From positions 3,330,001 to 3,362,000 of the forward strand of contig NZ_CP011041.1 in the NCBI RefSeq assembly GCF_002310835.1: a stretch of 32,000 nucleotides of DNA, given 5' to 3'. The translations under genes were made by a program, and so were the position numbers. Shown piece by piece: positions 11,001 to 31,080 of the stretch. Source of the stretch: Pseudoalteromonas tetraodonis (GTDB lineage: Bacteria; Pseudomonadota; Gammaproteobacteria; Enterobacterales; Alteromonadaceae). The notes beneath the pieces were generated by a model. It saw only the letters and a list, made by a program, of their open reading frames with translations, was not told where the DNA came from and searched no databases. Position 1 is the first letter of the stretch. Every line of letters starts with the position of its first letter.

Positions 11001-11032
11001 CTTTTCTAAGAAAAAATATATTAGGGAATAAT

Positions 11033-12793: not shown

Positions 12794-13073
12794 CTCGAAG
12801 AGTCAATTTCAACCTACTATTTAAATCATCTCAATGTCTCATAAAAGCCTAGTTTAAATTCATACATTCTCAGCCAGTCAAATCATGTAAAAGATTTAGC
12901 CAAGTCTATACCTTGTCGGTGCAATAATTGACCTTTATTATTTATCTAGAGCTAGATGCCGTCAAAAAATCTAATGTCAATTTCCGCAAAAATAGTCATT
13001 TTAAATAGATCTTACAAATCAAACTCCACTAGGGCGATGTAAAGTTTTCCCAACTTCAAAAGTAGGGGAAACT

Positions 13074-14261: not shown

Positions 14262-14287
14262 GCCAACAAGTTTAAAAGGTATCTATC

Positions 14288-14533: not shown

Positions 14534-14543
14534 AGATAGAAAA

Positions 14544-15302
14544 ATGAAATTAGCTATTTTTTCAGATATTCATAATGAATTTGGTGTTTGGCACCCTCCT
14601 AAACTAGATGCCGACGTGGTCATTCTGGCTGGTGATATACACTCCAAGCACCGCGGTGCTCAATGGGCTACTGAGTCCTTTGATGTACCCGTAATCTATG
14701 TACCGGGCAACCATGAATACTATGGTTCTAATATTGACTCTGTAAATAAGAAGCTTAAAGAACAGGTAGAAAACTCACATGTTCATGTACTGCTAAATGA
14801 GAATATCAATATCGGTGGAGTCAATTTTATTGGCTCAACCTTGTGGACTGATTTCAAACTGTTTGGAGAAAAAAAACAGCGTGAGTGCTCGTTTTATGCT
14901 GGTTCAAGAATCAATGACTATGAGCGTATTCGACTCAATGACAATGGTAAGTACCGCAAATTGAGAACTGCCGATACTCAAGGTTTTTTCGATAATTCAG
15001 TTAGCTTTATTGAAAAAACGCTAGCTAAAAATACCAACAACAAAACGGTGATCGTTACTCATCATGCACCGTCTGATAGATCAACACCGCAGCAGTACAA
15101 AGATGATTTACTGTCAGCCTCGTTTTCATCAAACCTTGAGAAACTTCTAGCGCAATATGACATTAACCTATGGGTACATGGGCACACACATCATAATGTC
15201 GATTACATGCTCTCTGGAACCCGAGTCGTTTCTAACCAGCGAGGTTATGCCAAGGTTGAAGAAAATACTTCATTTTGTGAAACATACACCATAGAGGTTT
15301 AA
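14544..15302 (+). CDS. Calcineurin-like metallophosphoesterase
   Basis: Motifs are MKLAIFSDIH (DxH), LAGDIH (GD), GNHEYY (GNHE), VTHHAP and GHTHH. I use the ATG at 14544 (MKLAIF...) rather than the track start at 14517. Confidence 0.8.
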   Translation: MKLAIFSDIHNEFGVWHPPKLDADVVILAGDIHSKHRGAQWATESFDVPVIYVPGNHEYYGSNIDSVNKKLKEQVENSHVHVLLNENINIGGVNFIGSTLWTDFKLFGEKKQRECSFYAGSRINDYERIRLNDNGKYRKLRTADTQGFFDNSVSFIEKTLAKNTNNKTVIVTHHAPSDRSTPQQYKDDLLSASFSSNLEKLLAQYDINLWVHGHTHHNVDYMLSGTRVVSNQRGYAKVEENTSFCETYTIEV

Positions 15303-15305
15303 TTT

Positions 15306-15593
15306 ATGAACATAAATTCGGACGAAATAGAAATTACCACTTGTGCCTCTCCTTACGATCCACCAATTGGCGCTCACGTAGGGGTTAGAATAAGGCATTT
15401 GAAGTTAAACATTGAAGTAACAAGCACAGACCAGAAATCGCAGCATAAAAATCATATGGTAGCGACGGAAAATCTTAAGTCAGAGTTAGCTAAATTTGAA
15501 CTCGTCAAATCTCGCTTTGAGGATATAGATGAGGATGATTTAATAGATGGTGAAACATTTTGGCGTGAGCTTAACTCCGGAAAATATGATTAA
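15306..15593 (+). CDS. Release-factor (RF-1/PTH domain)-like small protein lacking the GGQ motif
   Basis: 95 aa, starting 3 nt after the phosphoesterase stop. VRIRHLKLNIEVTSTDQKSQHKNHMVATENLKSEL aligns with class-I release factor domain 3 (..AVRITHIPTGIV.QCQ.DRSQHKNK..A...L.A.L). SQHKN lies at nt 15438-15452. The position of GGQHVN reads PPIGAHVG. Confidence 0.6.
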   Translation: MNINSDEIEITTCASPYDPPIGAHVGVRIRHLKLNIEVTSTDQKSQHKNHMVATENLKSELAKFELVKSRFEDIDEDDLIDGETFWRELNSGKYD

Positions 15594-15674
15594 AAACCTG
15601 AAAAAAATTTGATTCTTACAAGTTAAACTGAAGCTGCCTATGCGAGTATTTCGTCATCAATTTGGAGACGTAAT

Positions 15675-16349
15675 ATGAAAACAGTAATTAAAGCAAATAA
15701 TCAATACACAGCGAAGGTTATTGGTAATCACTTTGGGCTTGAATCACACGTAGTGAACAGCCTATTGATGAGTGTTGGCTACATTACAAAAGCGGCAGAA
15801 GGACATGGTTATTACTTAACAGAACTAGGCTTTAATAAAGGTGGCGAGCAGATCAGTGACACGATTAAGAATATCTCATCGGTAAGATGGCCAGAACCTA
15901 TTCTTAATGATCAGTTATTAATGTCAGCCATCGTTAACGTTAAAAATTCAGCAAAAAACGTTAAGGCCCCTACAGCAGGCGATACTACACTCGATTTCAG
16001 GAAAAAATACCCTGCCAATATCCGTACAACAGACGGACACTATGTAAGGTCAAAAGCCGAAGCATTAATTGATGACTTTTTATTTAACAACGGCATCGTA
16101 CATGCTTACGAGAAAAAGCTGCCTGTTAAGGAAGATTTATTTTGTGATTTCTATTTGCCTCAAGGCAAAGTATGGATTGAGTATTGGGGCTATGAAAACA
16201 AGCCGGAATATTTAGATAGAAAGAAGAAAAAACAGGCAATCTACAAAAAATATGGTGTCAATTTAATTGAGTTAACCGATATGGATATTCAGAACTTAGA
16301 TGACGTGTTGCCTCAAAAACTATTAGCGTTTGGTATCCAACTTTTTTAG
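15675..16349 (+). CDS. Hypothetical protein with a C-terminal PD-(D/E)xK (restriction-endonuclease-like) fold motif
   Basis: 224 aa. The C-terminal half reads RSKAEALIDDFLFNNGIVHAYEKKL...CDFYLPQGKVWIEYWG...YLDRKKKKQAIYKKYGVNLIELT. This is the S.E..i...L...gi.y.yE ... DFyl.....iEy.G ... K...Y pattern of nuclease domains attached to some helicases and restriction enzymes. The assignment rests on motifs only. Confidence 0.5.
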   Translation: MKTVIKANNQYTAKVIGNHFGLESHVVNSLLMSVGYITKAAEGHGYYLTELGFNKGGEQISDTIKNISSVRWPEPILNDQLLMSAIVNVKNSAKNVKAPTAGDTTLDFRKKYPANIRTTDGHYVRSKAEALIDDFLFNNGIVHAYEKKLPVKEDLFCDFYLPQGKVWIEYWGYENKPEYLDRKKKKQAIYKKYGVNLIELTDMDIQNLDDVLPQKLLAFGIQLF

Positions 16350-16387
16350 GCTGAGCACAATATTAATGTATAAGAGGAGAGTTTATA

Positions 16388-16791
16388 TGAGTAACGAAAA
16401 AGTCAGTGCGTGCGAGTTAACACAATTACCTGAAGAAGAACAAATTAAACTGATTAAAGCTTGGTTTTTAAAGTACTTTCATTGCCCAAGTGAAACTTGT
16501 TTTAGAGATGATGATACTGGCGGCTGGGTCTTTTTTAGTGGCCCTTGGGAGCAAGCCTCTGTATTAGAAAAGTATTTTGGCGAATATGTAGACCAGAACA
16601 TTATCAATCGCATTTCAGAAGAACTAAATGATCACGCCAGTGAATGGAATTCCGAATATGAAGCTCATGAAATCGATGATTTTTTATTGCCAATTGATTT
16701 AACGGTAAATAAAGCAACTCCAAAGATAGACACGCTATTAACTGCTGATTGCGTCATCAGCGAGTTCCTTGAACCAGAGGACGTTTTTTAA
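16388..16791 (+). CDS. Hypothetical acidic protein (134 aa)
   Basis: The ATG at 16388 is preceded by a strong SD (AGGAGAG). The track's upstream TTG extension (16330) overlaps the previous gene and is less likely. No motif recognised. Confidence 0.45.
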
Positions 16792-16927
16792 GGCTGTACT
16801 TTAACATTATTAACCTCATACAAAACACAAGGGCACACAGATCAATATTTTACAAAATAAAACATTCATCCAAAATGAATGTGGAAATGACTTTGTTATA
16901 GGTGACATCCACGGTAACTTAGATGCC

Positions 16928-17527
16928 TTGTTTGCATTATTGGAAAATGACTCGTTTAATTTCGACCACGATAGGCTATTCGCATTAGGTGATATCATAG
17001 ACAGAGGCGATAACTCCGAGGGATGTTTAGCTTTATTAAATGAGCCTTGGTTCTTTTCAGTGCTTGGCAATCATGAGGCCATGTTTTTAGAGTTATGTGA
17101 AAATGATAACTCTACATTATTGAATAAGAATATTGGTAATCAATGGCTGGAAAAATGGCTTAAACAAAAAGACCAATTAGTGCAATGGGCGCATGCTATT
17201 CAGCACAAAATGCCATTAACCATAACATTGGATTTCCATGGCTTCACAATAGGGCTTGTTCATGCAAAAGCACCAGAGCGCTGGCCAACACAAGCTGAAA
17301 AACGAGTATCATTAGCACAGCATAATGAAGAAATCTGGGATAGAACAGAATTTTATAACCGAACAGGGTTAACACCTTATCGAGGTACCGACATAGCCCT
17401 AATGGGGCATAACCCGGTTAGAAAGGTGACCTTACACGGAAACCGTATTTGGTTGGATACCCACCATACCTCTGGCCACCTCTCAATCGTCAAAGTAAGC
17501 CAGTTAGTAGAATTATTTAGGAAGTAG
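16928..17527 (+). CDS. PPP-family (lambda phosphatase/PrpA-PrpB-like) Ser/Thr protein phosphatase; the 5' end is problematic
   Basis: Motifs are GDIIDRGD (from 16988), GNHE (17066-17077), GLVHA and MGHNP. Catalytic motif I, GDIHGN, is encoded in the same frame at 16901-16918, upstream of the first ATG/GTG/TTG (16928). The frame is open back to 16814 but holds no canonical start codon. The stop is 1 nt before the kinase gene start. Confidence 0.7.
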   Translation: MFALLENDSFNFDHDRLFALGDIIDRGDNSEGCLALLNEPWFFSVLGNHEAMFLELCENDNSTLLNKNIGNQWLEKWLKQKDQLVQWAHAIQHKMPLTITLDFHGFTIGLVHAKAPERWPTQAEKRVSLAQHNEEIWDRTEFYNRTGLTPYRGTDIALMGHNPVRKVTLHGNRIWLDTHHTSGHLSIVKVSQLVELFRK

Positions 17528-17528
17528 T

Positions 17529-20500
17529 ATGAGCAGCAGTCAATTTAGTCAAAGTGAACTTGAGCTTCAAAAAGGATTTATAGAAAAGGCCAAAAGGGTT
17601 TTTGAGGTCATCAAAAGCGTTGCGCGATTTAAAACTTCTGACTCTGATGTAACTGCTAATGAGCTAAAAAATACATACGCTTATCTGTGCCAAGAATATA
17701 ATACTTATATAGCCTATCAACAAAACTGTTTACAGCTTTGTGATTTTATTTTGAAGTGGCTATGTGAGCCCGAGCAGTTTCAACAAGAGTTCAACTCGAA
17801 AGACGTTAAAGTCGATAGCTTTTTAAATAACGTTAAGGTAAATGGGCAGTATTTAAAAGCTGAGATCTACAATTTTATGGCGCTGTTGGAAACAGAAAAC
17901 GTTGGGGGCACCAAGTCGACACATAACTGGTCTCAACAAGTTAGAGTGCTTGAAAGGCACAGTAGTGACTTTAAATTATTCCTTGCTGATAAGCACTTAC
18001 ATGCTTTCCCCGATCTAATTGAATTAGACCGCAATGTATTGTTGTTAGGTTTTTTACGTTACTGTATTAATGATGGTCGCACAATTTTAGAAGAAAGCTT
18101 TCATCATTCAGTGAACAATGATGATGCAGAGCGGCCCGACCGTTTCAGTAAAATTTTGACGGCAAAACACTGGAGGGAGTCTTTTTCCAATAATAAAAAG
18201 TTGTTCAATAGACTCATTTTACGGGTTTGCGGTCTGCACCAAATAGAGTTTGCCTCACTTAAAAATTCCCGATTGAAATTCTTCGCCAAATTAGATGCAT
18301 TGGATAATGACTTAACCGCTTTTATGAACGACTTCTCTGACATCCTGGGCATTCGTTACTATCAAGATAAATTAAAAATCGACTCCGATGACATCGTTTG
18401 GAATTGGTTTAAGAAGGAAAAATTTTTAGATTTACTTGGCTTATTTGAAAAAGAGAAAGTCTACCTGCAACTAATTGAATTGGAACCGGAAAGTTCAGAT
18501 TTTTTACCTCTGGAAAAACAAGCGCTGGGGACAAGGTTAGGCTTGCCATTCAAGTCAGATGAAATTGACCAGGAAAAGTTGTGGATGATCGTTGGTGAGC
18601 CAAACACCGCTTACTTAAGAGTGCTAATTGATTTAGCAAGGCTCGCGGACAATTTTGATGAATTTAAAATGTTAGTGGTAAAGGAATTTGAGCCAACGTT
18701 CACAATTTCAACGAAGGAAAATAAAACAACCAAATTTGAGGAAAAAGCAAAAGAGTTAAAGCAAAAAGCTTTGGAGCAACTGCTTAAACCTTCAATGGAA
18801 ATGGGAGAAGGTAATTATAATAAAACGCAGTTATCTCAATCCTTCTTTCAACTGTTTGGCAAGTCAAAAAAACAACGCTCAAGTTTTGTTAATTTGTATA
18901 TAAAATACGTGGATCAAACCTATTGTTTGGACAGCGACAGATATCAAGCCAAAGCCTTTCCAGGCAAGAGTGATTTAAAAATTTTATTAAACGAAGTAGA
19001 CGAGGTGTCTTTTTCCAATAGTCACTTTGCTGAATGTTTCAGCGGCTATTTAGCAATCAACTCTCAAATGGGAGCCGTTGTCCGAGACTTGCACGATTAC
19101 ATCGAACGAGACAACCAGTCATTGTTAATCAAGCATTCGCTAGACGCCATGATGGAAAGCTTTAATCAGCCAGGTAATGCGACTAAGACCCTAACGGAAA
19201 TAATTAGTCTTATTGATGAGAAAGTTAGCAATGAAACTTTTTCTCAAAATGAAAACGAGGACGATTTTGTTTCATTTAAAGACTTATCAGGCTTTTCTAC
19301 AGAGCACACAAATTTTATCCCCTCTGACACTACTTTCGTTGTTGTTTATCGCTTAAATGTTTTATTGCGATTGATGATTAACACGGCAATTTCTGAAGAA
19401 ACTCCGTCTATTAACGCGCTAATTGAGCAAAGCTTGCAAGAAGAGTTTGAGTGTACTTACCGAGCTTGTTTTATCCGTCAGTCGATATTCGAAGAATTAA
19501 GCGCTAAAAATAGAAAAAAGGCGTTACAAGGTTATCGCACTTATCGAGATCAACAAATTGAGCTTGCTAAGATTTATGTCACTGTGAAACTCGCCATTAG
19601 TGGCAAGCCAGACACTGATCGGGCTTTACTAGATGCGACTAAATCATTAGCCAAAACCTATTTTAAAACCACAGGAAAACCTAATGATGTAAAGGCATTA
19701 ACTAAAATGCTGGATAAGGAGGATAATGTTAAAAAGATATTTGGCGAACCATTTTCACGCATTCAAATCCACCTTGAACAGCTCCTTTATTTGTTAGAGG
19801 AGAACGGTTCTGTTTTATCATCTGACTTCTTAACTAAAGAGTCTTTGGGGAAATTATTCGACCCAGGAAGTGATGACATTGATAGTCTCAAATATTTGCT
19901 GTTTTCATCCAACGTGATTGAATCTGTATGGAATGAATTAGTCACCATTGATGACGATTTATTCTTCGCTGTTTTAGTTTCGAGAATGTTAGATAAAACG
20001 TCTCCAAAAATTTCTGAACGAAATAATGTTCCTCACTATTTCTCGGGTTCACACAAAAACAGCATTTTAAAACAAATTACAAATTTCGATTATGAAAGCC
20101 TGCTTTTTCCCGCAACTGACGAACAACACGAAGTATTGAATACGAAGTTAGACACGCTTAAGAAGCTTCGAAAATTTAATGACGAGCGATTTGAAATTCA
20201 AAATATAAACCCTAATTTATCGGAAAAACTTGGAACTGGGGCCTTTGGTGTTGTTTATCTATGCAGAGACAAATTATTACAGACCGATGTAGCAATAAAG
20301 CTTATTCCTACTTGGGGTGACGATGAACGGATTAAAAAAAAGCTAATATCAGAAGCAGCTATAATGAGGCAATGCCAAGGCGAACACGTAGTTACAGTGT
20401 TTGACTTACATAAGTTCAATACCCGTCACTTTGAGTTCAATAATGGCTGCGTGGAAAGTGAAATCCAACGTCTTAATGATGACACAGTTTTTGGTATCGT

Positions 20501-22217
20501 CATGGAGTATGTTGAAGGAGCCGAAACACTTGAAACATTTTCTAAATCAAAAGAGTTTGGCTCGTTCAACCTTAACGAAAAGTTAGAACTTTTTCTTCAG
20601 ATATGTGGCGGTGTTGAGCAAGCTCATAATTTGCCATCTCCCATTATTCATGCCGATATTAAGCCATCAAATGTCTTGATAGACAAAAGAGCAGGTGCGG
20701 CAGTTCCTAAGCTAACGGATTTTGGAATAGCCAGTAAGACGGGCGCTTATTTGGGAGCCAGTTCAGGGGAGGTGTATTCGTCGCCTAATATATTAAATGG
20801 AGGGAAAGCCTGCATTAAAGACGACATTTACAGCTTAGGAATGCTTCTTCTTTACATTCTTTATCCCAAAATTATAGAGGCAGTGCAAAGTAATGTGTCG
20901 GACTGGGAAATTAAAGATAAGTTAATTGAGCTACTTTTCTGGGTTGTTAAAACAGAGCAGGAAAATATAGACGATTGTAAAGATGGTTATGAATCGTTCA
21001 TTCTTAAACACCTTGTCTCTAAAGACCTTCTTAGTCGGTTATCGTGCTTTTCCGAAGTTATAACAACATTGTTTGACTATCAATATAAACTGTCGGATGA
21101 CTCTTTATCACCGATTAAGTCTATTTTGTCATCGTTGATTGGAAATAGAGATATAAGTGAGTTTGACTGTGTAGACACTGAAGCAAGATTTAGTTCCTCT
21201 GTTGCTCCACATGGCAGTGTTCGCGAATTCTCTTTCCAGATTGGAATCTGCAAGAGCCTGGGAGTTGTCGATACAAAAACCGTCGCAACGTATGGCGGTA
21301 GAGTTTTGACTTTGGAAAGTTATAACGCTATCCCGAAGTGTGATCTCATTAAGGCCGCAAGGCTCTCAAATTATCAAAGGCCTGAATTGGAACTATTTTG
21401 CGCCATAGCTGCTGACACGTCTAAGCAAAGAAAGAGAACTTACTTAGGGCGTTTATGGGACTTTGAAAGCGGCTCAAAAGGCAAGGTATTTGGATTCGAA
21501 TCGCCTGGCTTTGTTCACGCTGAAATGCTCGAACGGACTTATATTTTTGACATGGAGTTAATTGCAGCTATAAAAAAAATCCATTACTCAGAGTTTAGCG
21601 TGGAAGAATTTTACAATGTCCTCAGTAAGTTAGCTATACGGGATCGGTTAGAAGAGTTTGACCCCATCGAGCTACCAGTCAACTTGGAATCTTTTTTAAG
21701 GAAATGCACATTAACAAACAGACTTTGCTCGAAAGCATATTCCGAGCTGAGGATTTGTTTTAAGGCCTTGACTGAGCAATGTATGTCAAAATCATTTATG
21801 AATGGGGTGAAAGTTATTAACTCGCTCTCTGTCGGTAGTTTGAAAGCGCTAAGGCTGAGCTTTGAGCAATCGAATAACGCTGAAGGAATGTTGGAGTTAC
21901 TTGTCGCCGATGGGCTACATGATTGGAATGGAGAAGGTGTCGAAAAGGTCGTCAATATTGTTTATGGCGATGAATACGGATTAGTGGGGTGGTTCTTGTC
22001 CCATGGACGCAACATGGAAGAGTGGGAGTTACTCATTGGGGCCATGGCAATCGCTGAAGAGTCATCCACTTATATAAGTATCATAACCCAAACCATAGAG
22101 AAGTTTTTAGTGAGTGAAGCATATGAAAAACTTGCAGTTGAACTAAAAGAGCTCGGTTTTTTGGTAAACGCCCACAAGCAGATAAGTGACAATAATGTTT
22201 TGGCTCGTTTATTCTAA
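17529..22217 (+). CDS. Giant (1562 aa) protein with a central Hanks-type Ser/Thr protein kinase domain and large uncharacterised N- and C-terminal regions
   Basis: The kinase subdomains are intact. They are LGTGAFGVV (res 901-908, nt 20229-20252), VAIK (K924), HADIKPSN (res 1041-1048), DFG (res 1064-1066) and DIYSLGMLL. About 890 aa upstream and about 420 aa downstream of the kinase carry no motif I recognise. Confidence 0.85.
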   Translation: MSSSQFSQSELELQKGFIEKAKRVFEVIKSVARFKTSDSDVTANELKNTYAYLCQEYNTYIAYQQNCLQLCDFILKWLCEPEQFQQEFNSKDVKVDSFLNNVKVNGQYLKAEIYNFMALLETENVGGTKSTHNWSQQVRVLERHSSDFKLFLADKHLHAFPDLIELDRNVLLLGFLRYCINDGRTILEESFHHSVNNDDAERPDRFSKILTAKHWRESFSNNKKLFNRLILRVCGLHQIEFASLKNSRLKFFAKLDALDNDLTAFMNDFSDILGIRYYQDKLKIDSDDIVWNWFKKEKFLDLLGLFEKEKVYLQLIELEPESSDFLPLEKQALGTRLGLPFKSDEIDQEKLWMIVGEPNTAYLRVLIDLARLADNFDEFKMLVVKEFEPTFTISTKENKTTKFEEKAKELKQKALEQLLKPSMEMGEGNYNKTQLSQSFFQLFGKSKKQRSSFVNLYIKYVDQTYCLDSDRYQAKAFPGKSDLKILLNEVDEVSFSNSHFAECFSGYLAINSQMGAVVRDLHDYIERDNQSLLIKHSLDAMMESFNQPGNATKTLTEIISLIDEKVSNETFSQNENEDDFVSFKDLSGFSTEHTNFIPSDTTFVVVYRLNVLLRLMINTAISEETPSINALIEQSLQEEFECTYRACFIRQSIFEELSAKNRKKALQGYRTYRDQQIELAKIYVTVKLAISGKPDTDRALLDATKSLAKTYFKTTGKPNDVKALTKMLDKEDNVKKIFGEPFSRIQIHLEQLLYLLEENGSVLSSDFLTKESLGKLFDPGSDDIDSLKYLLFSSNVIESVWNELVTIDDDLFFAVLVSRMLDKTSPKISERNNVPHYFSGSHKNSILKQITNFDYESLLFPATDEQHEVLNTKLDTLKKLRKFNDERFEIQNINPNLSEKLGTGAFGVVYLCRDKLLQTDVAIKLIPTWGDDERIKKKLISEAAIMRQCQGEHVVTVFDLHKFNTRHFEFNNGCVESEIQRLNDDTVFGIVMEYVEGAETLETFSKSKEFGSFNLNEKLELFLQICGGVEQAHNLPSPIIHADIKPSNVLIDKRAGAAVPKLTDFGIASKTGAYLGASSGEVYSSPNILNGGKACIKDDIYSLGMLLLYILYPKIIEAVQSNVSDWEIKDKLIELLFWVVKTEQENIDDCKDGYESFILKHLVSKDLLSRLSCFSEVITTLFDYQYKLSDDSLSPIKSILSSLIGNRDISEFDCVDTEARFSSSVAPHGSVREFSFQIGICKSLGVVDTKTVATYGGRVLTLESYNAIPKCDLIKAARLSNYQRPELELFCAIAADTSKQRKRTYLGRLWDFESGSKGKVFGFESPGFVHAEMLERTYIFDMELIAAIKKIHYSEFSVEEFYNVLSKLAIRDRLEEFDPIELPVNLESFLRKCTLTNRLCSKAYSELRICFKALTEQCMSKSFMNGVKVINSLSVGSLKALRLSFEQSNNAEGMLELLVADGLHDWNGEGVEKVVNIVYGDEYGLVGWFLSHGRNMEEWELLIGAMAIAEESSTYISIITQTIEKFLVSEAYEKLAVELKELGFLVNAHKQISDNNVLARLF

Positions 22218-22298
22218 GTCGACGTGATTTTTAATTTGTTACAAACCAAACTGCAATAACTATTGATTTAATGATGCCCAACAACCAGGAGTTGGTGG

Positions 22299-23087
22299 GT
22301 GCATTATATGCGTTATCCCACCTGCTCCTCATTAATGGAGCAGCTTATGAACTACAACAACAATACAAATCAAAACAACGGTGAAGGTGGTGCAGAGTTA
22401 GTCTTTTTACTTATCATTATCGCCGCGGTTTATTACTTTTTCAGCGAGAGTGAGCCAGAAGAAAAGCCTGAGTATATTCTTACGGCTGAGACTCGCATTA
22501 ACCAGCTGAATAAGACTTTAGATTATTATGGCTCATTGCGGAGTCGAGCAACCAGCAATTGTCAGAACTTTGCCACCGAGCTTCACAATAAAGGCCATTT
22601 CAACGTTTATCACTCCACCTTCCATGGCACAAATAGCTTATGGGATTTAAACAAGCATACGGCTTCAAACAAACTTACACCTTTAAGAAGTTGTTCGGTT
22701 AAACAAGTTAACTTCGACCAAAAAGGCACAGCCAATAATTTGGTGATGCTATGTGAAACTGGGGGCGGTGGCTGGACTACCAACCGTGTACTCGCCTCTT
22801 GCGCTATTGATGATGAGTTTAACGTTAGCAAAATTAACGTCTATTCAGGCAAATCGTTTCACATTATGGAAGGCACTGGAACTGGAGGCCCTGGTAATTT
22901 TGCCGGCAAGCTTGTATCAGGCAAGGTGAAGTTTGAGATTTATAAAAATAAGTATATCGATTATGTAAACGACAGCTTTTTGAAAGGTTTAAACAATAGA
23001 AAATCAATGGATGAATTGGTTTCAGATACAAAAAGCAAAATTAGCAAGGCTGAGTGGAATTTAGAGTTCTTGGCCAAAAATGGCTAA
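22299..23087 (+). CDS. Hypothetical single-pass membrane-anchored protein
   Basis: 262 aa, with a GTG start 7 nt after AGGAG. One TM segment (LVFLLIIIAAVYYFF) follows an Asn-rich N-terminus. No catalytic motif recognised. Confidence 0.5.
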   Translation: MHYMRYPTCSSLMEQLMNYNNNTNQNNGEGGAELVFLLIIIAAVYYFFSESEPEEKPEYILTAETRINQLNKTLDYYGSLRSRATSNCQNFATELHNKGHFNVYHSTFHGTNSLWDLNKHTASNKLTPLRSCSVKQVNFDQKGTANNLVMLCETGGGGWTTNRVLASCAIDDEFNVSKINVYSGKSFHIMEGTGTGGPGNFAGKLVSGKVKFEIYKNKYIDYVNDSFLKGLNNRKSMDELVSDTKSKISKAEWNLEFLAKNG

Positions 23088-23139
23088 CTCGCTGGCCACA
23101 CACTAGACACCAAAATTAACTTAAAAAGGATAATATTTT

Positions 23140-23961
23140 ATGAAGAAATTACTTATTGCACTATTTGCATTCACATTAAGCCCTAGCATTGTAAAAGCTG
23201 TAGAAATTGATCCTCAACTCCAATCAGCGCTACGCTCTTTTAAAGCGTTAACTCGATTAGAAATTAAAGGGGTTTCTCGAACACCCACAACAGGCATGTT
23301 CGCATTGTATACTAACAATGGTCCTATGCTGATTAACCACACAGGCCAATTACTTTATTCAAAAGACCAGTCATTTCATGCCGATGTTAAGGGCGCGATT
23401 ACAGGAAAGAAGCACCTAGAAATCAGAGCTGAAGCTCTTTCAGAAATTAACGAAGATAATGTCATCGTCATTAAAAAAGGGAGCGGCTCAAAACGTGTCG
23501 TTGTAAACACCGCCCTAGATTGCCCTTACTGCTTGAAACAAGAAAAGTTACTTGCAGCACAAGATAATTTAGACGTCACACTGCTGTTAGTTCCATCTGT
23601 TTTGGATAAACAGAACTGGCCTATTTTAGAAAAGGTCATGTGCAGTGCTGATAGGGCCGCTGCTTGGCATGATTATATGCTGAACCAAGTTGTTCCACAA
23701 AACAGTGGTAAATGTTATTGGTCTGATAACTTTAGTTTTCTAGGTCAAACCATTTATACATCAACCGTCCTTCGAACATTTGGTACCCCGCAAATGATTT
23801 ACGGAGACGGTAAGGTGCAAAATTTCAGAGAAGAAACTCCGTTAGGCTTAGTACCAACTTTTGGTAAAAATCAGAAAAATCTGTTTGACTCGAAGAGCAT
23901 TAAAACGGCTTATTTTTCTGACGAAGTCTACAAGACTAAGAAGAAACTGTTCAATTGGTAA
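23140..23961 (+). CDS. Periplasmic thiol:disulfide interchange protein, DsbC/DsbG-like
   Basis: 273 aa. Signal peptide (MKKLLIALFAFTLSPSIVKA). Thioredoxin-fold CxxC active site DCPYC (nt 23521-23532) in the C-terminal half. The N-terminal region is the size of the DsbC dimerisation domain. Confidence 0.7.
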   Translation: MKKLLIALFAFTLSPSIVKAVEIDPQLQSALRSFKALTRLEIKGVSRTPTTGMFALYTNNGPMLINHTGQLLYSKDQSFHADVKGAITGKKHLEIRAEALSEINEDNVIVIKKGSGSKRVVVNTALDCPYCLKQEKLLAAQDNLDVTLLLVPSVLDKQNWPILEKVMCSADRAAAWHDYMLNQVVPQNSGKCYWSDNFSFLGQTIYTSTVLRTFGTPQMIYGDGKVQNFREETPLGLVPTFGKNQKNLFDSKSIKTAYFSDEVYKTKKKLFNW

Positions 23962-23973
23962 AAAATATTAGTA

Positions 23974-23998
23974 AAGGGCGGTAAATATGCCGCCTTTT
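23974..23998 (+). terminator. Rho-independent terminator
   Basis: AAGGGCGG-taaatatg-CCGCCTTTT, 13 nt after the DsbC-like stop codon. Confidence 0.5.
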
Positions 23999-24068
23999 CA
24001 GATATAATATTTAAATTAATTCACAAGCGCATGAATTAATTAATTTTATTCTTTTAATAGTAGTACCT

Positions 24069-24596
24069 ATGGATAAACACGACATCACGAATTATTTTTA
24101 TACTATCCCCCCGAACCAATGGCAAGGAATGCTCGGTTTTCGTTACGAAACGGAGTATCACGGTATTAATACACCTGAGAATGTAGAATTTAATCGTCAA
24201 ATGGATGAGTTCGACGACTTTTGTAAGGAAAACAGTCTCAAAATTGAAGATTATCTTCCTTTGTTCGATCTAAAACCAATCATTAAAGCCTTAGGAGTTA
24301 TTTGTCATAATATAAATATCCCAAAAGCGAGCTTTACTCTTGTTGAGTTTCTTAGTTCAATATATGAAAGCTTGCCAAGTAAAGTGTTTGATAGCGAAGG
24401 CATGATTACTTTGGATGAGCTACCCGAATCTTGCTTTTGGCAACAAATAGACGAACACACCAGTGTTCATGTTGAAATTGGTGGTGTGGAGCTAGGATCG
24501 CGTGAGAGTATGAACTCTTACAAGGCTTATGTTTATATACTAAATTCTCAAACTGGGTATATGGAAGAGCTAGTTAAAATCGAAAGAGACGTTTGA
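24069..24596 (+). CDS. Hypothetical acidic protein (175 aa)
   Basis: ORF that follows a terminator and an AT-rich promoter-like region containing a perfect 9-bp inverted repeat. No motif recognised. Confidence 0.45.
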   Translation: MDKHDITNYFYTIPPNQWQGMLGFRYETEYHGINTPENVEFNRQMDEFDDFCKENSLKIEDYLPLFDLKPIIKALGVICHNINIPKASFTLVEFLSSIYESLPSKVFDSEGMITLDELPESCFWQQIDEHTSVHVEIGGVELGSRESMNSYKAYVYILNSQTGYMEELVKIERDV

Positions 24597-24738
24597 TTGT
24601 TAACTTCAATTTAGACAGCCATTATTTGGATAGCTGACAATAGAGGATTTTACATATAAATTTTGAAGTAATTGAAATGTTACAATCTAAACTCCAGAAA
24701 TGCGGTGTTTAATGCTTCTCAAATCGAGGAGCATTTAT

Positions 24739-27069
24739 ATGAAATATGTAAACAGAAATAACCAAGCAATTGAGGTATCAACTACTGAACTACATTTTGA
24801 CGAATTAAACACCTTTCCTATTGAAGTCATCACAGAAGTAATTAATTACTGGATGCCAACACTCACGGTGGCTAAGGCAATTAAATATGCTGATTGGCAA
24901 TCAGTGTTAAATTTATTTCATTACACCCAGTGTTTAGACCAAGCATTTTTTACTGAAATTCCTCCCTTTGAATTATTGGAGTGCACACCAAAAGAGTCAG
25001 TTCTTGCCCAAAACATTATTCTAAAGAAGCTTCGCCAAGTACAAGCTGTACAATTGTCTAAAGGCAATAAAGACGTGAAATCAAAATACGTTGAAGAGCC
25101 GTCACAAATTTCTAAGTTAATGTTATATCCAAACGAATTTTTGCGAGACGCGTTAACATTGCTACCAGAATGTGAGCGCGGAACGTTAGCGCCTTTTATT
25201 ATTCGAAGCGAAAACGGTGATAAATGCCCACTGTTACTACCTTTTGAAGAAGAGCCAAATTCTACAAAAGCTCAGCAAGCATTAGATAATTTAGTCGATA
25301 AATTAGAGCGTTACCTGAGAGAGCCTCATCATATTGGCTTTGAACCAGTAAATAGAAGCAACCAGGCGATCATCGAATATAAATTCTCGCAATTAGTGGG
25401 GTGTCACCCAGAACTGCTGGATGTCTGCTGCCAAGAGCAGCCTAAAAACAAACTCGCTAAAGTGTTGCTACCGCTTGAAAAGCAAATGAGAGAAGCTCTC
25501 TATGGATTTTTGTCACCTGAGTTAGCTACTGCCATTAAGGAAGAATTGCAAAAGCGAGAAAGTGAAACGTTTGAAAAATGGCAACAGCGCTTTAAAAATA
25601 AAACTAAAAACGAAATTAAGACATTCTTAGATAGAACAAGTGAACACGCATTTTTAGTCGCGTATAAGCCTTTATGTTTGTTAGAAAAAATCGTACAGAA
25701 AAAATCAGAGAGCCCTGAGCCTACCGCTGAAGCAATTGAAGTTATTGAACAACCGCCATATTGCTTTGAACAATTGGAAAACCGTTCGCAAGATTGCATT
25801 CGATATATGGTGCGCAACTCAACACCCAGTGAACTTTTAACCGCATTTTACTACAGTAAAGACATGCTCACTCTTGAACCGCTATTTGATGTATTTCCGT
25901 CGATGAAGCGTCGCTTTGAAGTTGAATATGCCGACTTCGAGCAACCCACAGTGGAGCAATCTTTAAGTGCACAACTCCAGCTAGGCACTTTATTAGACTC
26001 TTTTAGTGTATCTGGTACTTATGGACAGGATTCAGTAAATAAGGCCGATGAAAATGTAGAAGCCCCAACATTCATTGAAGAACAAGAATCAGAGCTACAA
26101 ACCATTGCTATCTTCGATAAAAATGAACTGGAAGAAACTGCAACCCTTAGAGAACTGACAGGGGAATACGGCGCAGAATTAGCAAATGAGGTTCTGAAAA
26201 AAGGCCCAGAAAAAAAAATTGTTTTAGCCACTGAATCAATGCTTGATGAGCTTGATTTAATGAAAGAGCAGTTTCCAAATTTCGAAGAGGTAATTGAAGA
26301 GCTTTATATTTGTTTAAAAGTGTCATTGTTAAACGCATCGCCGATTGAATTTCCGGTTATCAATTTACAATCGGTGCCTGGCTGCGGAAAAACCGAGTTT
26401 GTCAGAACACTTGCTAAAAGACTGAAATTAGAATTCTTTGATCTCAGTATCGCGACATGTCATTCAAAGGCTGATTTGATTGGCGGCTCCAGCCAGTTCA
26501 AGTCAAGTACAATGGGCGCAGTAGGAAAGGGAGTACTGCTAAAAACAGACACCTTTAATCCGATTATGTTCTTAGATGAGCTCTGTCTGGCAAAATCGGA
26601 TGGCGAGTGGGCGATTACACCAAGTTTATTGTCGTTGTTCGATATTGAGCAAAGAAAAAACGTTAAAGAACAGTTCTTAGATTTAAACTTTGATTGTTCA
26701 GGTGTGTTGTTTTTTACCACCACCAATAATTATGAGAATTTACTGCCAGCCCTGAAGAGTCGCTTAACCAATTTCGATATTCAGCCACCGTCCAAGGCTG
26801 ACATGAAAAAGATTTGTCAGAACATTTACCAAAGTTATCTGAAAGAAAAAAAGTTTCATCACCATTTTGAACAACAGCTCAGTTTTGACGTGACTGAGTC
26901 ACTAAGCTTGCTAACCCCGCGTGAAGCAAAAAATACATTAATTTCAGCAATCAGGAAGGCTTTTGTTCGTAGCGCAGATTGCAGTGAATTAGCGCAGGTA
27001 ACCTTGCAAGATATTGCCATTCGCAAAGGCAGTGTTTGCGAGCCACAGTCGGTTGGTTTTATTCATTAA
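24739..27069 (+). CDS. Lon-type AAA+ ATPase without a protease domain, with a ~530-aa uncharacterised N-terminal region
   Basis: I prefer the ATG at 24739 (MKYVNRNNQ...; GAGGAG lies 8 nt upstream) to the track start at 24700. Walker A is VPGCGKTE (nt 26377-26397), Walker B is IMFLDE and sensor-1 is FFTTTN. The block ITPSLLSLFDIEQRKNVKEQFLDLNFDCSGVLFFTTTNNYENLLPALKSRLTNFDIQPPSKADMK parallels the Lon AAA+ module (DPASALLEVLDPEQN..F.DHYL.V..DLS.V.F..T.N....P.PLLDRME.I.L.GY...EK). The protein ends right after the AAA+ lid. Confidence 0.8.
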   Translation: MKYVNRNNQAIEVSTTELHFDELNTFPIEVITEVINYWMPTLTVAKAIKYADWQSVLNLFHYTQCLDQAFFTEIPPFELLECTPKESVLAQNIILKKLRQVQAVQLSKGNKDVKSKYVEEPSQISKLMLYPNEFLRDALTLLPECERGTLAPFIIRSENGDKCPLLLPFEEEPNSTKAQQALDNLVDKLERYLREPHHIGFEPVNRSNQAIIEYKFSQLVGCHPELLDVCCQEQPKNKLAKVLLPLEKQMREALYGFLSPELATAIKEELQKRESETFEKWQQRFKNKTKNEIKTFLDRTSEHAFLVAYKPLCLLEKIVQKKSESPEPTAEAIEVIEQPPYCFEQLENRSQDCIRYMVRNSTPSELLTAFYYSKDMLTLEPLFDVFPSMKRRFEVEYADFEQPTVEQSLSAQLQLGTLLDSFSVSGTYGQDSVNKADENVEAPTFIEEQESELQTIAIFDKNELEETATLRELTGEYGAELANEVLKKGPEKKIVLATESMLDELDLMKEQFPNFEEVIEELYICLKVSLLNASPIEFPVINLQSVPGCGKTEFVRTLAKRLKLEFFDLSIATCHSKADLIGGSSQFKSSTMGAVGKGVLLKTDTFNPIMFLDELCLAKSDGEWAITPSLLSLFDIEQRKNVKEQFLDLNFDCSGVLFFTTTNNYENLLPALKSRLTNFDIQPPSKADMKKICQNIYQSYLKEKKFHHHFEQQLSFDVTESLSLLTPREAKNTLISAIRKAFVRSADCSELAQVTLQDIAIRKGSVCEPQSVGFIH

Positions 27070-27078
27070 GGAGAGACT

Positions 27079-27618
27079 ATGAAATTATTTGATCCGTCTT
27101 TACGTATTAATCTTAATCGCCAGAACTTTGAACTTGATGAATTTATCATGATTGACGTAGAGGCCTCTGGTTTGCGGCATTCGTCATACCCAGTGGAGGT
27201 CGCATTTGCGTCCTCTACTGCTGCACAGGCTAATTTTCTCATTAAACCTACCTCTGAGTGGTTAGAAAAAGGCGAGTGGGATAAAAATGCTGAGAAGCTA
27301 CATGGTTTATCGCAACAGCAATTGCTACAACATGGTGACAATATTGTTAATGTCGCCCAGCAATTAAACAAATACCTGTGTGGGAAATTAGTGCTGTGTA
27401 ATGATCTAACCTATGACGGGGCTTGGCTTTCCCAACTTTTTAAAGCAGCAAACACCTCAGTTACCTTTCATCTAATGGACTTAAGTGCCCTGTTCGATTT
27501 TTGGGGCGAACAAAAGACAAAGGTATTCAAAGAGGAATATGGCAAGACGCTTAATACCAATGAACACCGCGCGCTTCCTGATGCCAAACGTTTTGTTGAA
27601 ACCTACCAGGCATTGTAA
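27079..27618 (+). CDS. DEDDh (DnaQ/RNase T-like) 3'-5' exonuclease
   Basis: 179 aa. The start is 9 nt after the ATPase stop and is preceded by AAGGAGAG. Exo I is MIDVEASG, Exo II is CNDLTYDGAWL and Exo III is HRALPDAK (H-x4-D). Confidence 0.8.
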   Translation: MKLFDPSLRINLNRQNFELDEFIMIDVEASGLRHSSYPVEVAFASSTAAQANFLIKPTSEWLEKGEWDKNAEKLHGLSQQQLLQHGDNIVNVAQQLNKYLCGKLVLCNDLTYDGAWLSQLFKAANTSVTFHLMDLSALFDFWGEQKTKVFKEEYGKTLNTNEHRALPDAKRFVETYQAL

Positions 27619-27707
27619 AAAAACGAAGACTACTTTCAAGTCTTACAACTCAAGCGGAACAACCACCTTGTAAGCTTTAAAACATAAAGATTGCGCGAGA
27701 GGTTGGT

Positions 27708-28232
27708 ATGCAGAGATTAGATAAAACATATTACGAAAAGCTAAATCGTAAGGTTAAAAAGTATGGTTATACCGTTATGAGTGTTGTCTCTGACGAGCCT
27801 AGAAATGAAGACCATGCCGCATATTGTTACACCATTGGTTTATCAAATTATGGCTTTGCGGAGATCATGTTTGCTGACTGTTTTTATGACGATGTGATCG
27901 TGGCGGCAGACATGATTTTTGAATGTGTTAAAAATGGTCATAGACCGAACATTGGACAAATCATTCTCACTGAAAATGGACGCTTTAAACTGACGTCACT
28001 TTTACCTGGAATCAAAGAGGAAATTAGCGAACAGGCGTTGTTTTATTTTGAATTGTTCAGAAAAAGAGAAACAAATTATGACTTGGTTTATTTAGCGAAA
28101 GAGGATGAATGGGGGCTATTTCCTGACGAAAAAGTGTTTGCAAAATCTAAACACATTAACCAGCGATTTTTTGAACAGAGCGTAAATACAACTAAGCCTC
28201 TTGTTTTGGCTCTGCCCGAAGTTACCAATTAA
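27708..28232 (+). CDS. Hypothetical protein, DUF4262-like
   Basis: 174 aa. KKYGYTVMSVVSDEPRNEDHAAYCYTIGLSNYGFAEIMFADCF resembles the DUF4262 pattern (GW.v..V....... f.YTiGL....PEl.v.Gl). This is recalled from memory and was not searched. Confidence 0.45.
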   Translation: MQRLDKTYYEKLNRKVKKYGYTVMSVVSDEPRNEDHAAYCYTIGLSNYGFAEIMFADCFYDDVIVAADMIFECVKNGHRPNIGQIILTENGRFKLTSLLPGIKEEISEQALFYFELFRKRETNYDLVYLAKEDEWGLFPDEKVFAKSKHINQRFFEQSVNTTKPLVLALPEVTN

Positions 28233-28271
28233 CTTTGTCGCGAATCATATACTACATAGGAGAAATGTAAC

Positions 28272-28844
28272 TTGGATTTAAATAGTTTAAAAAAAAACTA
28301 CTTAGTTTTGGACTTGGAAGCGACCTGCTGTGACGATGATTCGTTCCCTACATCTGAAATGGAAATGATTGAAATCGGTGCACTTATGGTTTGCGGAGAG
28401 TCCTTGAAACCAGTGGGTGAATTCAATATTTTCATCAAACCGGTAAGGCACCCGCAACTGACGGAATTTTGTACCAAGCTTACAACCATTCACCAATCAG
28501 ATCTTGATGGAGCTCCTACATATAAAGAAGCAATTGCAAAGTTTAAAGCTTGGATGCTTCAGTTTGATAACTTCTTATGGGGAAGTTGGGGGCAATATGA
28601 CCAAAACCAAATTTGGCAGGATTGTAATTATCACAATGAGCCATATCCGATCCCAGCCCCACACTTAAATCTGAAAAAACAATTCAGTAAAGCGCAGAAA
28701 GTGAGAAAGCACCAAGGAATGGCCGGTGCCCTGCAACTCGCTGGCATTCCTTTGGAAGGCAGGCACCATAGGGGGATCGACGATGCTAGAAACATCGCAC
28801 GGTTATTACCTTTTGTCTTAGGTCGTAAATTTATTTCACAATAA
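28272..28844 (+). CDS. ERI-1/KapD-like DEDDh 3'-5' exonuclease
   Basis: 190 aa, with a TTG start 8 nt after AGGAGA. Exo I is LVLDLEATC...EMIEIGA, Exo II is WGSWGQYD and Exo III is HRGIDDARNIARL. Confidence 0.8.
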   Translation: MDLNSLKKNYLVLDLEATCCDDDSFPTSEMEMIEIGALMVCGESLKPVGEFNIFIKPVRHPQLTEFCTKLTTIHQSDLDGAPTYKEAIAKFKAWMLQFDNFLWGSWGQYDQNQIWQDCNYHNEPYPIPAPHLNLKKQFSKAQKVRKHQGMAGALQLAGIPLEGRHHRGIDDARNIARLLPFVLGRKFISQ

Positions 28845-28866
28845 AATTAATAAGGAAAAATATAAT

Positions 28867-29073
28867 ATGAAAACAGAAGAACTCATAGCAATTAACATCC
28901 CTAAAAGCCTGCTCACTAAACTACATTGGGCTTTAGCTTCGGGAACAGACACCAATAGAGTATACTTTGTCCTTCAGTTATACGTTGAGAAGGCCGAGCT
29001 AGAAGAGGGCGTAACATACCCGACAGATCGAGAGCCTGGGCATGACTTTGACGGATTTACCCTTAAAGTTTAA
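28867..29073 (+). CDS. Hypothetical protein (68 aa)
   Basis: ORF 22 nt after the exonuclease gene with an AAGGAAAAA-type SD region. It is followed by a terminator. No motif recognised. Confidence 0.4.
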   Translation: MKTEELIAINIPKSLLTKLHWALASGTDTNRVYFVLQLYVEKAELEEGVTYPTDREPGHDFDGFTLKV

Positions 29074-29145: not shown

Positions 29146-29238
29146 CGTACTTTGTACCAGTAGCGAACTTATAAGTTTCTGACTTTAATATTAGTTGCGC
29201 ACATTAAACACTGTTTCGAACATTATTTAACGTGCACA
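29141..29238 (-). repeat. glmS-proximal transposon end with four closely packed TnsB-type repeats
   Basis: Reading inward from 29238: TGTGCACG ttaaataatgttcgaaacag, tgtttaatgtgcgcaactaa, aacttataagttcgctactg, gtacaaagtacgaaacaaaa. The core is the same as at the other end, but the four sites are packed into ~100 bp, a density like Tn7-R. Confidence 0.75.
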
Positions 29239-29259: not shown

Positions 29260-31080
29260 TTACTCAACTGTAACCGATTTTGCTAAGTTACGTGGCTGGT
29301 CAACGTCAGTGCCTTTAATGACCGCTACATAGTACGACAGCAACTGTAGTGGAATTGTATATACAACAGGGGCAATTACGTCATCTACGTGGTTTACGTT
29401 GATTACACGCATTGTGTCGTCTGACTCAAAGTGTGAGTCTTTATCAGCGAATACATAGATGATGCCACCACGTGCACGTACTTCTTCTACGTTTGATTTA
29501 AGCTTTTCAAGCAATTCATTGTTTGGTGCTACAACAATAATTGGCATGTCTGCATCAATAAGTGCTAATGGACCGTGTTTAAGCTCACCTGCTGCATAGG
29601 CTTCAGCGTGGATGTATGAAATCTCTTTAAGCTTAAGCGCGCCTTCCATTGCGATTGGGTATTGTGAACCGCGACCTAAAAACAGTGAGTGGTGCTTATC
29701 AGCAAACTCTTCTGCAAGGTCTGCAATACCATCAGCCAACAATAGCGTTTCCTCTAATTTAGCTGGTAGCAGTTTAATAGCGTTAACAATCGTGCTTTGA
29801 TCTAAGCCTTTTTCCTGCGCAATAGACGCAGTAAGCATTAACAAACCAACAAGCTGCGTAGTAAATGCTTTAGTAGAGGCTACACCAATTTCAGCACCAG
29901 CTTTGGTCATAAAGGCAAGGTCTGATTCTCGTACAAGCGATGAGCCTGGTACGTTACAAATAGTCATTGACCCCATATAGCCTTGCTCTTTAGCTAAACG
30001 CAGTGCAGCTAAAGTATCAGCCGTTTCACCTGACTGTGAAATCGTTACTAGCAGGCTATTTTCGTGTACAAACGATTGACGGTAACGGAACTCAGAGGCA
30101 ATTTCTACGTTACAGCTAACACCTGCAAATTGCTCAAGCCAGTAACGAGCAACCATACCTGAGTGATATGACGTTCCACAGGCAATAATTTGTACGTGTT
30201 TTACGTCTTTAAATATTTGCTGTGCACTGTCGCCAAAGGCATCAATCGCTACGCGATCGTCGTTTAAACGTCCTTCAAGGGTGTTACGTACTGCAAGTGG
30301 CTGCTCATAAATTTCTTTTAGCATGTAGTGACGGTAATCACCTTTACCTGATGCATCTTGTGTGATGTTTGATTCAACAACTTCACGCTCAACCGCGTTG
30401 CCATCTGCATCAAAAATCTCTACCGTGTCGCGAGTAATACGCGCTACATCACCTTCTTCTAAGAAGATAAAGCTGCGAGTTACCGGTAATAATGCAAGCT
30501 GATCAGAAGCAATAAAGTTTTCACCAAGGCCTAAACCAATAACTAACGGGCTGCCTGAGCGCGCTACAATAATTTCGTTATCATTCGCTTTATCAAACAC
30601 AACGGTACCAAATGCGCCTTCAAACTGTTTAACAGCTGCTTGAACTGACGCTAATAAAGTCGTGTGCTGCTGACGTAACTGATGAATTAAATGCACCATG
30701 ACTTCAGTGTCGGTGTCTGATAAAAACTCGTAACCGTCGCCTTTAAGTGCTGCACGCAAGCTTGCGTGGTTTTCAATGATTCCATTATGTACAAGCGCTA
30801 ATTGATTGCTTGAAACATGTGGGTGAGCATTGGCTTCAGTTACACCGCCATGAGTTGCCCAACGAGTGTGTGCAATACCTGTGTGACCGCTAACACCAGC
30901 TTGTTCAAGTGCTGACTCTAAGTTTACAACCTTACCTACTGCTTTAACTGTATTAAGAGTATTGCCTTCAAGTAAAGCTACACCTGCTGAGTCATAACCA
31001 CGGTACTCAAGACGCTTAAGGCCTTCAACTAAGATTTTATTTACTGGACGTTCTGCAACAGCCCCAACGATTCCACACAT
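29260..31080 (-). CDS. glmS: Glutamine--fructose-6-phosphate aminotransferase (isomerising)
   Basis: 606 aa. The N-terminal MCGIVGAV carries the Cys2 nucleophile. The protein has two SIS domains and the canonical C-terminus [13 protein letters not shown]. Confidence 0.97.
29264..29299 (-). other. Inferred TnsD recognition segment of attTn7 (within the glmS 3' coding end)
   Basis: This is inference by analogy. In E. coli Tn7, TnsD binds about +23 to +58 from the insertion centre, inside the conserved glmS C-terminal coding region. The same offset from the TSD centre (29241) falls on the codons for ...[13 protein letters not shown]. Confidence 0.45.

Follow-up and report, generated by a model that had tools for sequence, protein, structure and literature searches.

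Lon-related ATPases, envelope motors and protein kinases each occur in described bacterial defence systems. The Lon-related protein of BREX is BrxL, which keeps a Lon-protease-like domain and has PglX, PglZ and BrxC as neighbours. Kinase-containing defences include PD-T4-6 (modelled as a single gene), the Stk2-type systems and MADS, in which mad6, mad7 and mad8 are mandatory and are joined by a methylase and a specificity subunit. In Zorya, ZorA and ZorB form a proton-driven 5:2 motor, and the tail of ZorA signals to nuclease effectors (PMC11946911). This study examines a 32,000-nucleotide (nt) stretch of the Pseudoalteromonas tetraodonis genome (contig NZ_CP011041.1, positions 3,330,001 to 3,362,000; hereafter the window, meaning the whole stretch), where a gene for a protease-less Lon-type AAA+ ATPase lies directly before a gene for a DEDDh exonuclease (Exo1) and downstream of a gene for a giant Ser/Thr kinase. 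Anatomy, conservation and context suggest, with about even confidence, that the kinase, the ATPase and Exo1 form an undescribed, mobile-element-borne anti-phage or anti-plasmid module of marine Gammaproteobacteria. The cluster is classed here as an ATPase-plus-nuclease module of the defence-island kind, with unusual parts and a very narrow taxonomic reach. Its three central features are given below (lengths in amino acids, aa).

24739 to 27069, plus strand: protease-less Lon-type AAA+ ATPase, 776 aa, WP_157740508.1, from reading of the open reading frame (ORF) and Pfam, PDB and TIGRFAM matches
27079 to 27618, plus strand: DEDDh 3'-5' exonuclease Exo1, 179 aa, matched by PF00929, PADLOC DEDDh and phrog_192
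17529 to 22217, plus strand: giant Hanks-type Ser/Thr kinase, 1562 aa, kinase domain at ~897-1173, with VAIK, HADIKPSN and DFG present

The ATPase-exonuclease pair

The ATPase ORF spans 24700-27069, with an ATG start at 24739 preceded by GAGGAG and a TAA stop at 27067-27069; the encoded proteins are identical to P. tetraodonis database entries, and the public annotation of the ATPase reads merely "AAA family ATPase". Residues 1-200 are an orphan region, ~230-440 are helical and resemble the middle and C-terminal (M/C) domains of FliG, 425-456 form an acidic low-confidence linker, and ~507-756 hold the Lon-type AAA+ module. The initial annotation had recognized the AAA+ blocks of Lon in the C-terminal part, and database comparisons agree: all 32 PDB matches of the ATPase are Lon (Lon chains at E=8.8e-16 to 1e-9), the alignment with Bacillus subtilis Lon (PDB 3m6a) covering residues 507-703 at E=8.8e-16, while TIGR00763 lon matches residues 536-709 (1.1e-17, 63.9 bits; model cut-off 608) and PF00004 matches at 5.6e-9. 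Walker A (PGCGKT), Walker B (LDE), sensor-1 (TTTN(N)) and the SRL/KSRL Arg finger are invariant in eight divergent family members, as is the LLSLFDIEQ...FLD segment, which also aligns with bacterial Lon. Pore-loop 1 reads GHRRTYVG in Lon and GGSSQFKS in the ATPase, its aromatic F587 being invariant in the same eight members. The alignment shows a sensor-2 region that is shortened relative to Lon, and the C-terminal peptide GFIH is invariant in the family.

Neither a Lon protease domain nor a Lon N-domain had been recognized at first, and both absences hold. Pfam gave no match in the ATPase to the S16 protease (PF05362/Lon_C) or to PF02190/LON_substr_bdg, the ORF ends ~70 aa past the last Lon-aligned residue, and an exhaustive profile search with the ATPase N-terminus returned family members only and no LON N-domain. 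In sequence, the protein retains the full catalytic set of a Lon-type AAA+ ring and has lost the protease. The idea that GFIH is a remnant of the strand that opens the Lon protease domain was dropped when a MAFFT alignment with Lon gave no convincing placement. A full-length AlphaFold model built from four sequences was not usable, with a predicted local distance difference test score (pLDDT) of 42; a model of the N-terminal region from eight sequences was used instead.

The exonuclease had been placed 9 nt downstream behind a Shine-Dalgarno (SD) sequence, and this reading stands. Between the ATPase TAA and the Exo1 ATG (27079) lies AAGGAGAGACT, a gap of 9 nt with the SD directly after the stop. 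Exo1 matches PF00929 at 2.2e-5 (25.5 bits, cut-off 24) and the PADLOC DEDDh model at 9e-12, with phrog_192 matching as well, and its catalytic set D26, E28, D113, H163 and D168 (Exo I DxE, Exo II D, Exo III Hx4D) is invariant in seven orthologues; its profile had no match in the PDB at E<=0.01. In the window, a 1-nt deletion at 27612-27618 (GCATTTGTAA to GCATTGTAA) relative to loci L001 and L002 ends the Exo1 ORF 21 codons early compared with a 96%-identical relative. The lost tail is not conserved and the catalytic core is intact; the Litorilituus orthologue likewise lacks the 21-aa tail.

The adjacency first noticed in the window is kept elsewhere. Exo1 is the next gene after the ATPase in 11 of the 12 loci with downstream sequence (these loci were found through the ATPase). 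The spacing between ATPase stop and Exo1 start was measured in 12 loci, with ATPase identities as low as 35%, and is 8-15 nt in every one of them; a purine-rich, SD-like sequence is located at the ATPase stop or immediately behind it. Searched from the other side, the Exo1 relatives of at least 40% identity that were looked up all lie directly behind this ATPase, together with the kinase; an exonuclease at 38% identity to Exo1 stands alone beside HIRAN, DUF559 and McrBC genes. The ATPase and Exo1 are probably translationally coupled.

It could be argued that the two genes are neighbours by chance or by shared descent, without functional coupling. Loci L001-L003 are syntenic with the window across the entire 14-kb block and, for that reason, cannot by themselves isolate the pair. 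However, the 8-15 nt gap is retained down to 35% ATPase identity, even where neighbourhoods are rearranged and the mobile elements differ, and the pair recurs in a distant clade with other upstream genes, so that this explanation is largely refuted and hardly credible. In the distant clade (L033-35), a short AAA+ protein (271-364 aa, with IGFV or IGFI at its C-terminus) is followed by a related exonuclease; the kinase is not present, its place upstream being taken by a weakly HerA-like protein of 708-747 aa and lipoproteins. Because this kinase-less clade keeps the pair, the ATPase-exonuclease pairing appears to be the older core.

The conserved cluster and the elements that carry it

The functional unit exceeds the two-gene pair originally described, since the kinase is constantly upstream and further partners recur. 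Wherever the sequence reaches far enough upstream, the ATPase gene is preceded by one for a Ser/Thr kinase of ~1,100-1,630 aa, which directly adjoins it in L006, L007, L008, L009 and L010 and is separated from it by one to three variable genes elsewhere; in lineages other than that of the window the gap is empty or holds either a 346-aa unknown protein or a ZorA-like/ZorB pair. An HExxH lipoprotein of 393-398 aa is found in 7 of 7 loci examined, its gene usually divergent from the kinase outside the window's lineage. Recurring but variable companions include DUF4262, a PrpA-like or other metallophosphatase, DsbC-like and single-transmembrane (TM) proteins, and a KapD-like second exonuclease. 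The conserved unit is the kinase with the ATPase and Exo1, and the lipoprotein and DUF4262 are frequent partners, giving a kinase-led cluster with phosphatase, HExxH lipoprotein and DUF4262. In the window these further genes are as follows.

13074 to 14261, plus strand: lipoprotein, 395 aa, with lipobox Cys and invariant HExxH, co-occurring with kinase, ATPase and Exo1
14517 to 15593, plus strand: metallophosphoesterase (261 aa) and RF-1-domain protein (95 aa), an accessory pair in several loci
16928 to 17527, plus strand: PrpA/PrpB-like Ser/Thr phosphatase (metallophosphatase), separated from the start of the kinase by 1 nt
22299 to 23087, plus strand: single-TM protein, lineage-specific, between kinase and ATPase
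23140 to 23961, plus strand: DsbC-like periplasmic thioredoxin-fold protein, lineage-specific, between kinase and ATPase
24069 to 24596, plus strand: 175-aa protein of no known family, lineage-specific, between kinase and ATPase
27708 to 28232, plus strand: DUF4262 protein, 174 aa, in most related loci at variable position
28272 to 28844, plus strand: second DEDDh exonuclease Exo2, KapD-like, 190 aa, accessory in some related loci, on either side of the cluster

Co-occurrence of the genes downstream of the pair is partial: DUF4262 accompanies it in most related loci, and Exo2 does so in some only. The metallophosphoesterase/RF-1 pair is 87-95% identical between loci whose ATPases are merely 40% identical and consequently moves as a separate mosaic block; its RF-1-domain protein has KSQ where the GGQ motif is expected. 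None of the ATPase, the DUF4262 protein, the lipoprotein and the intervening genes has a model in PADLOC v2. The DUF4262 sequence had no meaningful match in the PDB, and a promoter and terminator scan performed no better than on shuffled sequence. One preprint names DUF4262 as a Shedu nuclease domain; the hallmark of Shedu is DUF4263, and the lead was not used.

The entire cluster is cargo of a mobile element.

4073 to 29238, no strand assigned: Tn7-like transposon carrying the cluster, with 26-nt terminal inverted repeats, 5-bp target duplication and tnsABCD

The perfect 26-nt inverted repeats (TGTGCACGTTAAATAATGTTCGAAAC) at 4073-4098 and 29213-29238, the AAAAC target duplication (5 bp) flanking both ends, and homologues of tnsA, tnsB, tnsC and tnsD at 4242-10104 (identified by reading translations) define one Tn7-like transposon of 25.2 kb at glmS, which lies on the minus strand at 29260-31080 with its stop 21 nt from the transposon end. 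Three related loci, that of Litorilituus lipolyticus among them, likewise have the terminal sequence of the transposon next to glmS. In the window, 14 kb separate the ATPase cluster from the tns genes. The layout is unusual in that tnsABCD sit at the glmS-distal end, reading towards that end, with ~19 kb of cargo between the glmS-proximal end and tnsA. Outside the transposon, positions 2481-2556 carry a 76-nt copy (79%) of the glmS 3' coding end at 29313-29388, the TnsD target region, suggestive of an earlier attTn7 event or of a tandem one, and an 86% direct repeat (1618-1917 and 2076-2375) encodes two paralogous small membrane proteins. The cargo also comprises a type I-C retron reverse transcriptase-Toprim gene at 11033-12793 (PADLOC 1e-217). 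An Rfam scan of the window detected no RNA family and, at the gathering threshold, no msr/msd; the retron non-coding RNA may lie within the ~300-nt upstream gap at 10720-11030. At 15675-16791, a 224-aa protein with a PD-(D/E)xK-like C-terminus corresponds to the PADLOC candidate PDC-S69 (2.6e-74), its overlapping 153-aa partner being kept in L001-L003 and L019. PADLOC also finds a PDC-S10-like phosphoesterase among the cargo.

Known hosts are Pseudoalteromonas, Thalassotalea, Colwellia, Litorilituus, a Francisellaceae metagenome-assembled genome (MAG) and a MAG labelled Psychroserpens. Within them the cluster is found on unrelated mobile elements, either Tn7-like or of a relaxase plus serine recombinase type, and one copy of the latter lies beside BrxR and Zorya genes. 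Some copies are probable pseudogenes: the ATPase is split into 543 and 223 aa with loss of Walker A in a Colwellia MAG (L015/L016, 7674-9988) and into 330 and 413 aa in P. gelatinilytica. On viral contigs the sole matches were weak, generic AAA+ ones of 21-33% identity.

Given this setting, the ATPase and exonuclease might serve the mobile element itself, for example by processing its DNA as it is transferred, replicated or integrated, rather than defend the host. The genes of the closest AAA+ relatives outside the family come directly behind those for an integrase and an HD/OB TraI_2-like protein of the relaxase type; they belong to small integrative elements (L025-L032) comprising an AlpA-like gene, the integrase, the HD/OB TraI_2-like protein, a 185-aa protein and the ATPase, whose tail ends in two hydrophobic residues followed by His. 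Weaker relatives are plasmid-borne, those at ~30% identity having inconsistent partner genes, and every copy of known context resides on a Tn7-like or relaxase/recombinase element. However, carriage of the same cluster by unrelated element types indicates that it behaves as cargo and not as core machinery, the 14-kb distance from the tns genes points the same way, and neither a hypervariable cassette, nor frequent pseudogenization, nor a giant kinase is expected of element housekeeping. A role for the element is considered unlikely.

The N-terminal region of the ATPase

The N-terminus of the ATPase is very rare. Among 5.8 billion proteins, a word-indexed search returned three full-length relatives, an exhaustive hidden Markov model (HMM) search with the N-terminal 477 aa against 1.84 billion cluster representatives returned four proteins in total, and a second profile search added two ATPase-family proteins; further members were found through the Exo1 search and a metagenome scan. 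With so few matches in the profile searches, this is an orphan region confined to the family. The initial description of the first ~530 aa as unassigned remains valid for residues 1-200, but not for ~230-440, where a likeness to FliG was found. The eight-sequence model is all-helical with a pLDDT of 70 and low-confidence linkers at 199-205, 326-340 and 425-456. When it was searched with Foldseek, each of the top 12 PDB matches was a FliG structure; the probability reached 0.99, with E only ~0.06, and the isolated FliG C-domain superposed on it with a template modelling (TM) score of 0.70 at 3.3 A. The Pfam FliG_C model matches six of eight ATPase members individually (best 3.5e-6), the window ATPase scoring 2.4e-4 and 21.8 bits, below the curated cut-off of 23.3 bits, and the family profile matches Thermotoga maritima FliG-MC in the PDB at 7.7e-4 over residues 233-438, with the MFxF hinge and torque-helix region aligned. 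Matches to FliG begin at residue ~214 and do not include its FliF-binding N-domain, and no flagellar genes were found in any locus. On these three independent lines of profile and model evidence, a FliG middle plus C-terminal fold for residues ~230-440 is probable, though unproven.

An internal duplication of the N-terminal region had also been hinted at, based on the VNRNNQAI/VNRSNQAI echo. The echo is present in the window ATPase and is marginal, as 30 of 1000 shuffles reached its score; a further shuffle test gave 55 of 300, hhalign of residues 1-195 against 196-480 returned a 0.35% probability of similarity, and some family members lack the echo. The duplication was rejected.

Comparison of L001 with the window reveals a different form of variation. 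Their glmS genes are 99.8% identical while their ATPases are 62% identical, and this divergence is concentrated: identity is 76% over residues 1-100, 23-40% over 101-455, where it is no higher than with the most distant members, and 87-96% over 456-776. This contrast marks residues 101-455, which include the FliG-like domains, as a hypervariable cassette that has been swapped. Outside its catalytic part, the kinase is as divergent between the two loci as the ATPase cassette, and in L001 (1957-6526) the kinase is split into ORFs of 902 and 593 aa, 26-50% identical to the window kinase. The Thalassotalea version of the ATPase (462 aa) lacks residues 1-200. Being both very rare and allelically swapped between near-identical strains, the N-terminus is a natural place in which to seek a specificity determinant.

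In flagella, the stator acts on the C-domain of FliG. In three loci from uncultured Pseudoalteromonas (L012-14), a ZorA-like and a full-length ZorB gene lie between the kinase and the ATPase (L012 6000-7565). The ZorA-like protein has 286 aa and comprises the MotA/ExbB-type membrane part (2.7e-12) with the long tail missing, and ZorB matches at 8.4e-59; an S8 subtilase-like gene is found further downstream in the same loci. Tail-less stator genes beside a FliG-like domain, in this one lineage, are suggestive. The FliG-like region might act as a rotor-type receiver for a 5:2 stator, namely the embedded tail-less ZorAB-like proteins or otherwise possibly a host stator or an ExbB/TolQ-type motor, so that a phage breach would be passed mechanically to a nucleic-acid-destroying ATPase-exonuclease at the entry site, with the kinase gating the response. 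Such an arrangement is a decidedly improbable proposal. If true, it would pair a stator with FliG outside the flagellum for the first time and offer a second, ZorA-tail-free solution to Zorya-type signalling.

Proposed function and comparison with known systems

The generic logic of an NTPase sensor or motor with a nuclease effector, invoked at the outset, has gained a defence-like context (Tn7-like cargo, retron, PDC-S69, hypervariable cassette); the function itself is something we infer. In the proposed mechanism, the kinase, reset by the phosphatase, would sense infection or an envelope breach and turn the system on. The variable FliG-like N-terminal region would serve to recruit or activate a hexamer of the ATPase, which would use ATP and the conserved pore loop to thread or strip its substrate, either invading nucleic acid or end-protecting proteins. 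Exposed 3' ends would then be handed to docked Exo1 for degradation, the GFIH tail possibly holding the exonuclease. An envelope origin of the trigger is suggested by the lipoprotein, by the DsbC-like protein and by the ZorAB-like genes of one lineage.

The same envelope proteins could instead indicate an envelope-stress or protein-quality-control unit, in which kinase-phosphatase signalling would direct a Lon-derived unfoldase to remodel phosphoproteins, the DsbC-like protein and lipoprotein metalloprotease would act in the periplasm, and the exonucleases would be incidental. The conserved aromatic pore loop is typical of protein-threading AAA+ proteins of the HCLR clade, the HExxH lipoprotein, DsbC-like and single-TM proteins recur, and a precedent exists in McsB-ClpC, where kinase-marked substrates feed an AAA+ unfoldase. 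However, Exo1 is the most constant and most tightly joined partner of the ATPase and is kept in the kinase-less clade, only particular lineages have the DsbC-like and TM genes, and patchy distribution on mobile elements together with allelic hypervariability is unlike a housekeeping stress system. This explanation is quite unlikely.

Several points nevertheless weigh against the defence module. In one locus (L023) the ATPase has no Exo1 behind it, and the AAA+ proteins of L025-L032 (454-483 aa), the nearest outside clade at 38-42% identity in the ATPase module, lack the exonuclease and have a context that points to element DNA processing. The FliG likeness is weak (E ~1e-3 to 1e-6, model pLDDT 70, low global TM-scores), and the embedded ZorAB-like genes are confined to one lineage and do not occur in the window. 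Synteny alone cannot tell one kinase-ATPase-exonuclease machine from co-travelling systems, and the periplasmic partners are not accounted for. If the defence module is real, it would be a new type built from parts not seen together, namely a protease-less Lon AAA+ ring, a DEDDh exonuclease, a kinase/phosphatase switch and envelope proteins, and would offer a possible link between a FliG-type domain and a ZorAB-type motor outside the flagellum.

The initial annotation knew of no named system that matched, and neither PADLOC v2 nor the literature altered this: full-text searches found no description of a Lon-like ATPase with a DEDDh partner, nor of FliG-like domains in defence. The difference in context from BREX, already remarked upon at first, also holds. 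The cluster shares with BREX only the presence of a Lon-related protein; unlike BrxL, the ATPase has lost the protease, and PADLOC Brx/Pgl models matched neither the ATPase nor the ORFs scanned at 10375-29073, where there is no methyltransferase or PglZ gene. Similarity to the kinase defences lies in the kinase catalytic domain only (mad6 1.7e-41; PD-T4-6 models ~1e-28). None of PD-T4-6, the Stk2-type systems and MADS has a Lon-like ATPase or DEDDh partner, and the window lacks the methylase and the specificity subunit of MADS; membership in MADS or PD-T4-6 was rejected, as the kinase domain alone matches. IetAS was also rejected, with IetA matches that are marginal (E ~0.002, 16 bits, P-loop region only) and no subtilase in the window.

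The resemblance to Zorya consists of the ZorA-like and ZorB genes of L012-14, the recurring envelope proteins and a logic of envelope sensing followed by nuclease attack that would be similar. However, the embedded ZorA-like protein lacks the long cytoplasmic tail that Zorya signalling needs, ZorC, ZorD and ZorE are missing from L012-14, and PADLOC Zor models matched none of the window ORFs scanned. The weak likeness to FliG (MgtE_N) is seen by Pfam HMM, PDB profile and fold search alike; the ATPase differs from FliG in lacking the FliF-binding N-domain, in having no flagellar context and in being fused to an AAA+ module. LonA is the best and sole strong match of the ATPase, which shares its Walker A and B motifs, sensor-1, Arg finger, LLxxxDxEQ...FLD segment and aromatic pore-loop-1. 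The ATPase nevertheless fails two of the three defining features of LonA, being without the S16 protease and the LON N-domain, and it has a ~19-aa insert before the AAA+ core, an unrelated N-terminus of ~500 aa and an end ~25 aa past the lid, at GFIH. In ClpX, IGF loops dock ClpP. By analogy only, the invariant I/V-G-F-I-H on the flexible AAA+ tail could dock a partner enzyme here as well; the partner, however, would be an exonuclease and not a peptidase, and GF near the C-terminus is likewise seen in AAA+ relatives at greater distance whose genes have no exonuclease beside them. If the proposed mechanism is true, the cluster would provide a testable case of an AAA+ ring that feeds or activates a nuclease.

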